Source: Promethearchaeota archaeon (GTDB taxonomy: Archaea > Asgardarchaeota > Lokiarchaeia > Sigyniarchaeales > SOKP01). Taken from it: a stretch of 64,000 nt of DNA. Below are positions 8,249 through 41,115 of this stretch, piece after piece (within the stretch, counting starts at the first letter, position 1; each line of letters starts with the position of its first letter). The position numbers were made by a program, and so were the translations under genes. The stretch spans positions 16,767-80,766 of the forward strand of contig JABXKD010000005.1 of assembly GCA_013375475.1 (NCBI GenBank), given 5' to 3'. The notes beneath the pieces were generated by a model, which was not told the origin of the DNA, ran no database searches, and was given only the letters and a program-made list of their open reading frames with translations.

Positions 8249-9599
8249 ATGCCAACCGATAAAAAACATTTAAACCTCGTGATTATAGGACATTTTGTTA
8301 GGCTAATTAAGCCTTCAGGTTCAAATTGATCACGGGAAATCAACAATGATGGGCGCAATGCTCATTAAAACTGGAGCAGTAACCGATAGAGAAGCAAGAG
8401 AACTTGAGAAGTTAGCAAAAGAGAACGATAGAGAATCTTGGTCTTACGCATATGTGTTTGACCGGTTGAAAGAAGAACGAGCACGGGGTATTACTATTGA
8501 CTTAGCTTTTCGAAAATTTGAAACTAAAACTAAATATTTTACTATAATTGATGCACCTGGACACGCGGACTTCGTTAAGAATATGATCACTGGTGCTTCT
8601 CAAGCTGATGCTGCTATTTTAGTCGTTTCTGGAAAGAAAGGCGAAATGGAAGTTGGTGTCGCAGCTAATGGTCAAACTAGAGAACACGCTTATTTAGCGC
8701 AAACCTTAGGTGTTAAACAATTAGTAGTTGCCGTTAATAAAGCCGATGTCTACGATTACAAGGAAGAGCGTTATAACGAAGTAAAAGATGCAGTCTCTGA
8801 CCTTCTAAAAAATATTGGTTTTCCAGTTAAAAAAATTCCGTTTGTACCCGTTAGCGGTATTAAAGCGGAAAATCTTACAGAGAAATCAGATAAACTTCCA
8901 TGGTACGATGGTCCTACTTTAATTGAAGCGATTGATGCTTTTGAACTCCCACCAAAACCTACTGGCAAACCTCTACGAGTTCCAATCCAAGATGCATACA
9001 ATATCAAAGGAACGGGGGTTGTTCCTGTTGGAAGAGTAGAAACTGGTGTATTAAAGAAAAATGATAAAATAGTTATCATGCCAACGGGCTTTAAAGGGGA
9101 AATAAGAAGCATCGAAATGCATCACGAAGAACAAAATCAAGCAGAACCCGGTGATAACATCGGATTTAGTATTAGAGGTATTACAATGGCAGATGTTGGC
9201 CGTGGCGATGTTATGGGCCACCCAACTGATGTACCAACTGTAATTAATCGAAATGGGAACTGGACTGGACAAGTAATTGTTATCTGGCATCCAACAGCGA
9301 TCGCTCAAGGGTACACCCCTGTAGTTCACGCTCACACTGCTCAAGTAGCCGCTAAATTCATCGAATTAAGTAAAAAATTAGATCAAAAGACTGGTGCTGT
9401 AATAGAAGACAATCCAAAATTCCTCAAGAAAAATGAATCAGCGATAATTAAGCTACAACCTATTAAAAAGCTTTGTCTTGAGAAGTATTCGGAATTTCCC
9501 GAATTGGGGCGATTTGCGGTGCGCGACATGGGTAGAACATCGTGTGTGGGGATTGTCAAGGATTTAGATCCTGGTGAACCTGTAGTTAAAAAAAAGTAG
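8249..9599 (+). CDS. tuf: Translation elongation factor 1-alpha, two exons (8249-8293 + 8325-9599), 439 aa after splicing
   Basis: Exon 1 MPTDKKHLNLVIIGH + exon 2 IDHGKSTMMG...ERARGITID...DAPGHADFVKNMITGASQAD...NKAD...LGRFAVRDMG; joining restores the P-loop GHIDHGKST. Confidence 0.95.
8294..8324 (+). other. 31-nt bulge-helix-bulge (tRNA-type) intron in EF-1alpha mRNA
   Basis: TTTGTTAGGCTAATTAAGCCTTCAGGTTCAA; central helix GGAC(8288-91)/GUUC(8319-22), bulges AU|U and AA|A, inner hairpin AGGCU/AGCCU, exon-exon helix 8276-8285/8327-8336. Confidence 0.88.
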
Positions 9600-9607
9600 T
9601 ATAATTG

Positions 9608-9616
9608 TTTTTTTTT
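9608..9616 (+). terminator. Oligo-T tract, probable archaeal intrinsic terminator after EF-1alpha
   Basis: Run of about nine T immediately after the stop codon. Confidence 0.45.
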
Positions 9617-9835
9617 ATAAATTTTTATATAATTTCTTTTTAAATTTTCATTTGTATTTTAAGTGAGATTTAAATTTATCTGTGGTAAGTGTAAATTCTT
9701 TTATTTATTGACTTAAATTCTTAATTCTGGTTACAATTTATGAATTTATATAAAATTCTCATCCATACTTTTTTAAGTTGACATTTATTAACTTTTTTAG
9801 CCCATTTCGAATTAAAGTAAAACCTAAATGATATC

Positions 9836-38085: not shown

Positions 38086-38146
38086 TATTGTTAATCCAAT
38101 TTTACCTGTTTTTTACGACGAGGATGGTACTATCCTTCGTGAATTA

Positions 38147-38740
38147 ATGTTAGCTTTTTTACTAGGATATTTCGATGGGGATGGAACTATTAAAAAAGAT
38201 ACTAACGCTGGAGCAATTTATTCGAACAATCTCGAATTTCTCACGGCAATAAAAAATGTTTTCAATTTAGGAAAGGTATCAGATGATAAAAGATTAGTAT
38301 ATAATCCTTCCACAAATACTTATTCTGAAAAGAATCTTCATACCTTATATCTCAATAAAAGAATAATTAAGCAGATGATGAGTCTTGGTGTAGTATCAAT
38401 GAAGAGAAAGAGTGTGGAATCTGAATTGATTAAATTAAACGAACCTGTTATGACAAAGCAAAGAATGTGGTTAAAAAAGGTTTTACCCGCTAATTTCCTT
38501 AAGCAAATTCTTACCACTCATTCTCCAAGTAAAATTGGTGAATTAGTAGGAGTTGATCATAATACACTACTAAAATTTATGAAAAATGTCTACAAACTTA
38601 ATCCAAAAGATAAAGGATACTATATTAAATTATCTTATGAGAGAAAGCAAAGTTCAGCAATCACTAAGCTTAATAAATTATATAATGAAAGAACTCAGCA
38701 TTTAATAGAAATTGGAGAAAAAAATCCATTTAAACAATGA
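38147..38740 (+). CDS. LAGLIDADG-domain protein, probably 5'-truncated, with C-terminal HTH
   Basis: LAFLLGYFDGDGTI motif; SPSKIGELVGVDHNTLLKFM HTH; only one LAGLIDADG motif present. Confidence 0.7.
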   Translation: MLAFLLGYFDGDGTIKKDTNAGAIYSNNLEFLTAIKNVFNLGKVSDDKRLVYNPSTNTYSEKNLHTLYLNKRIIKQMMSLGVVSMKRKSVESELIKLNEPVMTKQRMWLKKVLPANFLKQILTTHSPSKIGELVGVDHNTLLKFMKNVYKLNPKDKGYYIKLSYERKQSSAITKLNKLYNERTQHLIEIGEKNPFKQ

Positions 38741-38832
38741 TCTTCTTCTTGTTTATTCATAAAAGCATAAAATTTTTATGATTTGCTATATTTTAGCTAT
38801 TATATTAAATAAAATTTAAGAGATGATATATC

Positions 38833-41115
38833 ATAGTAAAGGTAAAGAACCCTGAGGAGATCGCGCATCTCATAACTGCGGGTTCATATGAAAAAAAGCG
38901 GCTATTTAGTATTATAGCCCATATAGATCACGGTAAAACAACTGCAAGCGACTATCTGTTAAGAAGAGCAGGATTAATGCGTGAAGAAGATGCCGGACAG
39001 CTCCAAATGACCGATTCAGATTTAGAATAAGACTTACTTTTTCTACTGAAAGAAGAGGAGCAGGCAAGAGGAATTACTATTTTCACGAGTGTAGTTTTAT
39101 TAGCTTTCAATGACCCTAGAAAACCAGATGACGACGAACCATACATCCTTCAAATTAACGATACTCCTGGGCATATTTCTTTTACCGGAGAAGTATCGCG
39201 TGCGCTTAGAGGTAGCGATGGCGCTATAATTCTCGTTGATGCTTTAGAGGGTGTCATGACTCAAACGGAAACCAATATTCGATTATCTGTTGGCGAAGAG
39301 TTTTGTAAACCTGTTCTATTTATAAATAAAGTAGATCGCTTAATTAGCGAGCTTAAGTTAAGCCCAGAAGACACTTTTGCGAAAATTGACAAAATATCGA
39401 GACAAGTTAATGAATTAATCAAAAAGATTAGACCTGAAGGATCAGGTTGGGGCGTCGATTTTGCTAAAAATAGCGTTGCCGTTGGCTCAGCGAAGCATGG
39501 GTGGGGTTTTACATATGAGATTTTATTGGAAAAAGGTTTAAAGCCACAAGATGTATTCGCAAAATATAAAGAAGGCGATATTCAATGGTTGAGAGATAAT
39601 CTTCCACTTGACGAGCCCATGTTAAGGATGGTTGTGGATCATTTACCTAATCCTGTAGAAGCTTCAAAGTATAGAATCCCTCATATATGGGGGGGCGATT
39701 TAAACTCAGAACTCGGACAATCTCTTCAAAAATGCGATCCTAAAGGTCCTCTCTATGGCATGATTACAAAAATATTCTTAGATCCACGAAGAGGGTATCA
39801 AGCTACTCTAATAGGTCGCGTTTTTTCTGGTACATTCGATCACACTGATTCAATTTATTTGATAGGCGGTAGGAGTACAAATCGAGTAAAACGATTAGGT
39901 GTTATGGAAATAACAGATCTTTTAGATATTCCCCGAGTTCCAGCAGGTAATTTATTTGCCTTATACGGGTTTATTTGCCCATCTGGAGAGACATTTATGT
40001 CTGCAAGTGACGTACCAAAAGATAAGGAGGAAGCATACCAATTACCCACCTTTGAAAAAATCCAATACGCCTGTGAACCCGTTGTTTCAAGAAGTATAAA
40101 AGCCCAAGATCCACAGGAGATAGATAAATTGACTACAGTAGTAAACAAGTGGCTTCAAGCAGATCCAACTGCGATGTATCGTTTAGATAAAGAGTCTGGA
40201 GAATTTATATTAAGCGGAATTGATCCGCTTCAAATTGAGATACTTACAAAGCGAATTAATAATCAAGTGGAAATTAATATTGGAGAGCCGATTATAGTAT
40301 ATCGAGAAAAAATAACCAAGAGAAGCAGAGATTATTACACAAAATCAGCTAACACACATAATCGCATTTTGTTATACATTGAACCACTAGACGAGAAAAC
40401 GGAAAAACTAATTGAGTCTGGAAAAATAACAGATCTGATGAATGAAAAGGATAAAGCTAAAATCTTGAGAGAGGAAGCTGATTGGGACGCGAAAGAAGCT
40501 AGACGAATTGTTGATGTGTATCAAGGAAGCTTACTCGTAAACGGTACCTCGGGATTACAACGATTCGATAAAGTTAAATCGTATTTAACGGCCGCTTTTA
40601 GGGATTGGCTTGGAGAATGTATTCTTGCGAAAGAACCAGCCGCAGGATTTAAAGTTGTTTTCACAGATATGACAATTCACGAAGATACAAGGCATACATC
40701 ATATGGTCAAATCGCTGGAATGGCTTTTTCAGCAATGTCACTAGCTATGTTGGACGCTGGACCTCATCTTTTTGAACCCATTCAGAAAATTGACGTGAAA
40801 ACTCCAGAAGGGACTGAGGGACCGGTAAATGCTATTATTAGCAAGCGACGTGGTAAAATTACAAACGTAATTCCCGAAGGAGAGTACGTAAGAGTTCAGG
40901 GTGAAATTCCCGCAGCTGAAACTATTGGTATAGCTGACGATATTCGAGGTTCTACTCAAGGAAGGGCTTTTTTTGGATACGAATTTTCGGGATTTGAAAA
41001 AGTACCAAATAGTTTAGAAGAAGATCTTATCCTCGAAATTCGCAAACGTAAAGGTATGCCAGACCACTTGCCAAATACTTCAAGTTGGGATCGGTTTATT
41101 TACAAAAAGACTTAG
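38833..41115 (+). CDS. Elongation factor 2 family GTPase (possibly the Asgard aEF-2 paralog), two exons (38833-39021 + 39052-41115), about 750 aa after splicing; apparent ATA start
   Basis: Exon 1 ...RLFSIIAHIDHGKTTASDYLL...MTDSD + exon 2 EEEQARGITIFTS...NDTPGH...DALEGVMTQTET...FINKVDR; domain IV HEDTRHTSYGQI; C-terminal RGSTQGRAF, IRKRKG. Confidence 0.92.
39022..39051 (+). other. 30-nt bulge-helix-bulge (tRNA-type) intron in EF-2 mRNA, containing an in-frame TAA
   Basis: TTAGAATAAGACTTACTTTTTCTACTGAAA; central helix UCAG(39016-19)/CUGA(39046-49), bulges AU|U and AA|G, inner helix UAGAA(39023-27)/UUCUA(39041-45). Confidence 0.88.

Follow-up and report, generated by a model that had tools for sequence, protein, structure and literature searches.

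The stretch of DNA analysed in this work (the window) is 64,000 nucleotides (nt) long and derives from a Promethearchaeota archaeon. It contains the genes for two translation elongation factors, EF-1alpha and EF-2, each of which is interrupted early in the region encoding its G domain by a short insert that is a candidate bulge-helix-bulge (BHB) intron. The window corresponds to G000:C244:16767-80766, i.e., to a part of contig C244 of the metagenome bin G000, which has a size of 3.92 Mb in 288 contigs with a G+C content of 32.5 % and is rated 100 % complete with a contamination of 6.4 %. Both genes are encoded on the + strand of the same contig, at a distance of 30 kb from each other, hence the description of them as unlinked in the first-pass annotation of this sequence does not hold.

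The first exon of EF-1alpha (8249..8293) consists of 15 codons, reading MPTDKKHLNLVIIGH, and it aligns with the starts of 29 congener genes. It is followed by an insert of 31 nt (8294..8324, referred to below as site A), which is located between the residues GH and IDHGKST, and then by the second exon (8325..9599), which comprises 424 codons plus the stop codon and matches the TIGR00483 EF-1_alpha model with 582 bits (cut-off 540). When the frame beginning with the ATG at 8249 is read through, the residues encoded by exon 1 are followed by FVRLIKPSGSN and then a stop, and the rest of the P-loop (IDHGKST) picks up at 8325 in a different frame. Deletion of positions 8294-8324 by script yields an uninterrupted EF-1alpha of 439 amino acids (aa). 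The open reading frame (ORF) finder reported for this gene just a 417-aa piece that starts at the internal ATG at 8346. The EF-2 gene is similarly organized. Its first exon (38833..39021) begins with ATA and is separated from the second exon (39052..41115; 687 codons plus stop, with the diphthamide-loop His kept) by an insert of 30 nt (39022..39051, site A of this gene), which is located between MTDSD and EEEQARGITI and contains an in-frame TAA. The frame reads ...IAHIDHGKTT...QMTDSDLE, then TAA, then ...EEEQARGITI; after deletion of 39022-39051 it gives an uninterrupted EF-2 of 750 aa, counted from 38833. The ORF finder retrieved a 619-aa piece starting at 39256, and the second exon alone scores 567 bits against the TIGR00490 aEF-2 model, which is under its cut-off of 738. 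The 5' end of this gene reads ATA GTA AAG GTA AAG, compared to ATG GTT AAA GTA AAG in its relatives, and no in-frame ATG, GTG or TTG is present ahead of the P-loop. Both inserts are in phase 0, with the junctions AU|U...AA|A in EF-1alpha and AU|U...AA|G in EF-2. The inserts of 30-31 nt, the phase 0 junctions of the form AU|U...AA|R and the premature stop upon retention, all of which were claimed in the first-pass annotation, are thus borne out for both genes.

The secondary structures predicted for the two inserts are also of the same kind. In EF-1alpha, the BHB motif (8276..8336), which was identified by its minimum-energy fold and by a register test, consists of an exon-exon outer helix of 10 base pairs (bp; 8276-8285 with 8327-8336), a central helix of GGAC (8288-8291) paired with GUUC (8319-8322), bulges at 8292-8294 and 8323-8325, and an inner hairpin at 8295-8318. 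The fold of positions 8274-8345 recovers this complete helix-bulge-helix-bulge-helix arrangement, including the GGAC:GUUC central helix, the AUU bulge and the inner hairpin, with an energy of -21.8 kcal/mol (z = -4.49), which was equalled by none of the 200 shuffles against which the minimum-energy fold was compared. In EF-2, the fold and the register test identify a BHB core (39016..39052) with a central helix of UCAG (39016-39019) paired with CUGA (39046-39049), 3-nt bulges at 39020-39022 (AUU) and 39050-39052, and an inner hairpin at 39023-39045. The outer exon-exon helix of this insert is distant and its fold energy is unexceptional, hence the motif is regarded as a relaxed form. The register test requires a 4-bp helix with no more than one G-U pair and, in exact register, an inner helix of 3 bp or more; in a scan of the whole genome this arrangement was found for 9.9e-4 of all position/length pairs. 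It is present at the alignment-defined boundaries of all three inserts of genome G000, the third of which is described below.

The exact boundaries of the inserts are provided by homologues that lack them. In an alignment of 30 EF-1alpha loci from the genus, including that of the window, the other 29 lack exactly positions 8294-8324, and the site A insert is present only in the window's own locus. A DNA search of 42 genomes of the genus revealed no second carrier of this site, and for the 28 other genomes that matched the region the alignment begins only at the end of the insert. The EF-2 alignment comprises 29 loci (28 from the genus and L063 from another genus; L047, whose contig starts inside the gene, is left out). 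Of these, 26 lack exactly 39022-39051, and three (the window's own locus and those of G023 and G015) carry inserts of related sequence at the same site, the differences among which preserve or lengthen the hairpin. The comparison across relatives that was proposed in the first-pass annotation thus shows that most congeners precisely lack the inserts, and that other BHB-type inserts occur nearby in some of them. In comparison with the nearest congener, the spliced frames give dN/dS (non-synonymous over synonymous divergence) of 0.025/0.453 for EF-1alpha and 0.026/0.625 for EF-2, so that both genes evolve under strong purifying selection.

A scan of the genome with the GTP_EFTU domain flagged a further match, on contig C33, that contains an internal TAG and was identified as aIF2-gamma (521 bits). 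This gene reads GHVDHG, then MN-stop-SFRQIPI, then KTTLV. Its P-loop insert is 30 nt long, with a central helix of AUGG:CUAU, bulges of AA|U and AA|A and an outer helix reduced to 2 bp, a mismatch and then 1 bp. The insert is carried by 10 of the 29 genus loci that cover this site (L082 is left out, since its contig ends inside the gene), which include nine other genomes; one of these is the nearest congener, G014, which has the insert in aIF2-gamma (L081) and lacks that in EF-1alpha (L005). In the alignment of these inserts 88 % of the structure cells pair, compared to 27-53 % with slid partners, and a compensatory change from U-A to C-G is found in two of the nine distinct inserts. The aIF2-gamma gene (G000:C33:21075-22700, - strand; L076, L080) additionally has a genus-typical N-terminal extension of about 120 aa before the G domain, which is lysine-rich with repeated 'GIGxxTAxKI' stretches, and the frames in uninterrupted congeners are 517-540 aa long. 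The usual length of archaeal aIF2-gamma is about 410 aa.

Inserts of this type were also observed at other positions in the relatives. At site B of EF-1alpha, which is ten bases downstream of site A, within the Gly-Lys of the P-loop, inserts of 31-33 nt are present in five of the 30 loci (G033, G036, G029, G017 and G018), with a central helix of AUGG:CCAU and bulges of AA|U and AA|A or AU|A; the insert in aIF2-gamma occupies the same position in its P-loop. Site C of EF-1alpha is represented by an insert of 31 nt between HLN and L (CUUG:CAAG) in locus L132, which was found in contigs of public genomes. For this last comparison 40 of 79 loci were used, with the rows of bacterial or distant origin (L147, L148, L151-L168 and L170-L188) excluded; L121 and probably also L129 duplicate genomes already included in the counts. 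Lastly, the EF-2 gene of G015 (locus L060) contains a second insert, of 31 nt, between AHID and HGKT (EF-2 site B). The four exon-1 bases before the last two pair with the four insert bases before the last two at six sites, imperfectly at one of them, and at these six sites in three genes the spliced frames correspond base for base to the intron-less homologues. The combination of a 4-bp helix, two 3-nt bulges and an inner hairpin that the first-pass annotation had described for EF-1alpha and EF-2 is thus seen in both and recurs at four further sites, with the imperfection at EF-2 site B. Among the loci with a P-loop insert, the His codon that supplies the exon bases of the helix reads CAU in all 15 of 15, compared to 14 of 44 among the loci without one; these genomes are related and hence not independent. 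The use of CAU by every carrier is expected if the pairing constrains the exon.

These observations bear on translational bypassing, in which the ribosome would take off at the last codon of exon 1, skip the hairpin-containing insert and land at exon 2. Examples of bypassing are known from gene 60 of phage T4 and from the mitochondrial 'byp' elements. Like the inserts described here, bypass elements are short, hairpin-forming sequences within coding regions that must be skipped, the sizes of 30-33 nt and the internal hairpins are similar, and in EF-1alpha the triplet CAA before exon 2 matches the take-off codon CAU at two of three bases. However, bypass elements need matched codons, and in two of the three genes the take-off and landing triplets are unmatched (GAU and AAA in EF-2, GGA and AUA in aIF2-gamma). 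Bypass elements also lack the BHB register, and bypassing leaves unexplained both the 4-bp exon-insert helix in exact register at the six sites (one imperfect) and the fixed CAU codon in the carriers. On these grounds we consider bypassing to be highly improbable.

It must also be considered whether the inserts are artefacts of assembly or binning, or whether the genes are decaying pseudogenes whose function is provided by copies missing from the bin. The bin in question is fragmented, with 123 of its 288 contigs shorter than 1 kb, which implies that it contains pieces of co-occurring congeners, and its contamination is the 6.4 % indicated above. Moreover, it includes a contig of 682 nt (C109) with an 88 %-identical piece of EF-2 that lacks exactly the 30 nt of the insert, and the EF-2 of the window starts with ATA. 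However, an assembled DNA contig from an independent run of the same study on another sample (X2) spans positions 8233-8423 with the EF-1alpha insert unchanged (0 differences, no gap); this run additionally holds an intron-less relative of the gene. The artefact that the first-pass annotation had named as a possible refutation is thereby countered for EF-1alpha. Homologous inserts are also found in other bins (G015 and G023 for EF-2, nine genomes for aIF2-gamma), whose frames are otherwise intact, and the dN/dS values of about 0.05 noted above are against decay. The same annotation had raised the possibility of an intact second copy of each gene. In a search of the bin with the spliced protein EF-1alpha gave a single match, and aIF2-gamma likewise has one match in the assembly, so that neither has a second copy in a bin that is rated 100 % complete. 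The only further copy of EF-2 is that on C109, which is 73 % identical to the EF-2 of the window and 79 % identical to that of G019, and because it is nearer to the latter it is regarded as a co-binned congener. In G015 and G023, a search with the EF-2 of the window retrieves the intron-bearing gene and, apart from it, just a paralog of 34 % identity. Artefact or decay is therefore the least probable of the alternatives considered here, and we regard it as extremely unlikely.

The paralog just mentioned is also present in the genome under study (G000:C99:2590-4779, - strand; L079), where it is intact, shares 34 % identity with EF-2 and has lost both of the diphthamide-loop His residues. It was found in 34 of the 41 genus genomes searched; among these 34 matches one (G064) contains an in-frame TAG but no insertion and one is truncated. 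Directly upstream of EF-2 (38147-38740, + strand) lies a free-standing ORF of 197 aa with a LAGLIDADG_3 domain (27.9 bits). LAGLIDADG homing endonucleases usually reside inside introns or inteins. Further downstream, at about 41755, a stretch of 31 nt is present in G008 and G027 and absent from the window; it was rejected as a coding insert, as its location is intergenic (41723 to 41848), with divergent genes on either side, and outside any reading frame.

The genome also encodes enzymes of the kind that excise BHB introns from tRNAs. Two ORFs of the EndA family, of 200 aa (C215) and 202 aa (C133), match TIGR00324 with 113 and 96.5 bits, and both have the N- and C-terminal endonuclease domains. 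By visual inspection, the catalytic His is kept in the ORF on C215 and missing in that on C133, which fits a pair of alpha and beta subunits. An RtcB homologue is present on C211 (561 bits). According to the part of the published account that was available (PMC5829648), Asgard archaea possess an (alpha-beta)2 EndA with an L1 loop, a feature associated with a broad substrate range, and relaxed forms of the BHB motif are cut by such enzymes. Introns were predicted in 22 of the 44 tRNA calls made by ARAGORN for genome G000. Several of these introns are non-canonically placed, and the predictions for three of them are very long (359, 825 and 1623 nt). In the tRNA-Ser(UGA) gene on C11 the sequence 'CUUG ag|u ... 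CAAG ua|a' lies beside an anticodon stem of 7 bp; when both bulges are cut behind their second base, ARAGORN calls the resulting tRNA as intron-free. The rule for EndA cleavage on which the first-pass annotation relied, by which each bulge is cut behind its second base, therefore also excises a tRNA intron of this genome. Support for the rule is taken from this canonical tRNA alone; in a rougher check, BHB excision gave an intron-free call at 10 of 13 interrupted tRNA loci, several of which changed identity.

The inserts might alternatively be removed from RNA by some other endonuclease and ligase, or by self-processing. The relaxed motifs of EF-2 and of locus L060 would be compatible with this, and the parts played by EndA and RtcB are deduced from the genome. 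However, the geometry of the inserts is exactly that recognized by EndA, whose cut rule holds on the tRNA of G000, and the inserts are far below the size of group I or group II ribozymes, with Rfam giving 0 matches in the window. Removal by such other means is in our view very unlikely. A group I or group II intron or an intein was rejected as a candidate for the same reasons of size (30-33 nt only) and the lack of Rfam matches in the window; additionally, the EF-1alpha insert, being 31 nt long, shifts the frame and is hence not an intein.

The comparative and structural evidence taken together well supports the reading of these inserts as tRNA-type introns in mRNA, and the inserts in EF-1alpha, EF-2 and aIF2-gamma are very probably BHB introns that are spliced by EndA and RtcB. 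In the mechanism that we propose, the end of exon 1 and the 3' part of the insert would base-pair in the primary transcript, giving the 4-bp helix between two 3-nt bulges, while the middle of the insert would form the hairpin. A heteromeric (alpha-beta)2 EndA would cut each bulge after its second base, and RtcB would ligate the exons, thereby restoring the GTPase reading frame; the excised piece of 30-31 nt would probably be circularised. Cleavage by EndA and ligation by RtcB, as well as any regulatory use of these steps, are what we infer from the motifs and the gene content. On an unspliced message, translation ends after 26 codons in EF-1alpha and after 67 codons in EF-2, from which it follows that production of these factors would depend upon the tRNA-splicing enzymes; the making of EF-1alpha and EF-2 thus probably needs these enzymes.

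Several observations weigh against this interpretation. The covariation within any one family of inserts is thin, amounting to one compensatory pair, a number that was reached by 207 of 500 shuffles. The central helix of EF-2 site B is imperfect, consisting of 3 bp and an A.G mismatch, and the site A insert of EF-2 has no adjacent outer helix and an ordinary fold energy (z = -1.32, equalled by 27 of 200 shuffles). The start of EF-2 (38833-38835) is ATA, and ATG is present in 28 of the 28 other aligned loci; the gene may use a non-canonical start codon or be in early decay, or the base may be a sequencing error. The host assembly was binned from a metagenome and is rated 6.4 % contaminated. Finally, the runs labelled as RNA (X8, X17 and X19) gave no contig of this species that bridges 8293/8325, a result that is uninformative either way with regard to splicing: these runs yielded contigs of relatives only (one from X17 begins at 8325 and differs at 11 of 317 bases), and X8 is flagged as 'probably DNA'.

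The extent to which other genes are interrupted in this manner was surveyed by different means. No extra copies of the three inserts were detected in genome G000 beyond the inserts themselves. When the window was compared with four congeners (42.6-50.0 kb aligned), just two inserts of 25 nt or more proved to be absent from all four, namely those in the elongation factors. The alignment of contig C34 of G008 (370 kb) with the whole genome covered 216 kb and contained 64 indels of 14-120 nt, of which just one, that in EF-2, had the BHB register and was also flanked by long ORFs on either side. This alignment thus revealed no further BHB insert with coding flanks in either genome, although its sensitivity is limited, since it missed the EF-1alpha insert, which the aligner split into gaps of 19 and 10 nt, and a tRNA intron on C224 failed the strict filter. 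In the families scanned in the same genome, no internal stops were found in TruB_N/cbf5 (two matches, one frame of 355 aa) or among the 26 AAA, 49 ABC_tran and 73 Ras matches; these scans of 150 matches are blind to frame-shifting inserts outside the domain. Some odd partial ABC matches were rejected, as they correspond to masked N on C87 and to partial and degenerate domains on C19 and C225. The 73 matches to Ras-family small GTPases are an observation of separate note. The gene for aIF5B is intact in 38 of the 38 genomes with a match. A genome-wide scan for BHB motifs whose splicing joins two open frames was tried as a census and abandoned, as adjacent genes swamp the signal: among 4.1 million candidates, 1273 passed with the true cut and 1181-1299 with control cuts moved by one or two bases. 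The hosts identified so far are three translational GTPases, in which the inserts are always located in the early G domain.

With regard to the origin of the inserts, the aIF2-gamma insert and the EF-1alpha site B insert of G033 share 21 of 29 aligned bases, as counted by hand, including an identical stretch CUUUUCGA, which suggests a common origin of these two sequences. Additionally, three changes are required to account for the three carriers of the site A insert on the gene tree of EF-2; this points to precise losses on repeated occasions or, alternatively, to a transfer that reached the same site. Based upon the shared P-loop position, the 21 of 29 shared bases and these three changes, we tentatively raise the possibility, which at present we hold to be on the doubtful side, that they are mobile BHB mini-introns which insert into the G-domain coding sequence of translational GTPases and pass from one paralog, or one species, to another.

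The first-pass annotation had noted no earlier description of such introns in Asgard elongation factor genes, and our literature search, in which subscription journals were thinly covered and supplements lay outside its range, likewise found no BHB introns in Asgard protein-coding genes. To our knowledge, BHB introns in mRNA are known from one crenarchaeal gene, cbf5. The intron in the cbf5 pre-mRNA of Crenarchaeota was reportedly the subject of earlier papers by Watanabe in 2002 and Yoshinari in 2006, both cited in PMC12397907. Splicing of the cbf5 intron is reported in the accessible part of a later study (Yokobori 2009, PMC2738675), and a recent preprint (10.64898/2026.10.13.758758), in the portion of its text that was available, deals with Asgard introns in tRNA only and contains the terms 'mRNA' and 'elongation factor' 0 times. 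As far as these partly available sources indicate, the inserts described here resemble the cbf5 intron in being short BHB introns of a protein gene with a presumed heteromeric EndA, in their lineage-specific presence and loss, and in having been missed by gene callers. They differ from it in that the host is an Asgard archaeon rather than a member of the Crenarchaeota, that the interrupted genes encode three translational GTPases, and that at least six sites are involved, in the early G domain of three paralogous genes, with a patchy distribution, whereas the cbf5 gene of this genome is itself unbroken. Moreover, splicing has been reported for cbf5 (PMC2738675, as consulted in part), whereas here it is predicted from the DNA.

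The motif and cut positions of the BHB introns in archaeal tRNA and rRNA are identical to those of the inserts, but the substrate here would be an mRNA that is open to ribosomes during its synthesis. Furthermore, since the outer helix is built from coding sequence, synonymous sites in the flanking exons would be constrained. A likeness is also seen with HAC1/XBP1, where a short mRNA intron is removed without the spliceosome by a protein endonuclease and an RNA ligase, with a change of frame. The exons of HAC1/XBP1 are joined by tRNA ligase or RtcB. However, the endonuclease in that system is IRE1 (PMC13149111, in the part available) and not EndA/TSEN, its substrate has two stem-loops instead of a BHB motif, and the process is stress-regulated.

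The three genes interrupted here code for translation factors of an Asgard archaeon that are among its most essential and abundant ones, and the interruptions occur at several independent sites across the genus. If splicing is confirmed, no EF-1alpha, EF-2 or aIF2-gamma could be made without the tRNA-splicing enzymes, a dependency that would be unexpected and might serve as a point of control. Gene callers and marker pipelines would then truncate or drop these three proteins, with effects on phylogenomic marker sets and on completeness estimates, and the gain and loss of mRNA introns would be open to study in living lineages beside the eukaryotic stem. It may be speculated that translation capacity is in this manner coupled to tRNA maturation. 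Should the inserts indeed prove to be mobile mini-introns, the dependence of three core factors on EndA and RtcB would tie translation capacity to tRNA splicing, and it would provide, in the closest relatives of eukaryotes, an archaeal precedent for mRNA splicing by protein enzymes of the kind known from XBP1/HAC1.

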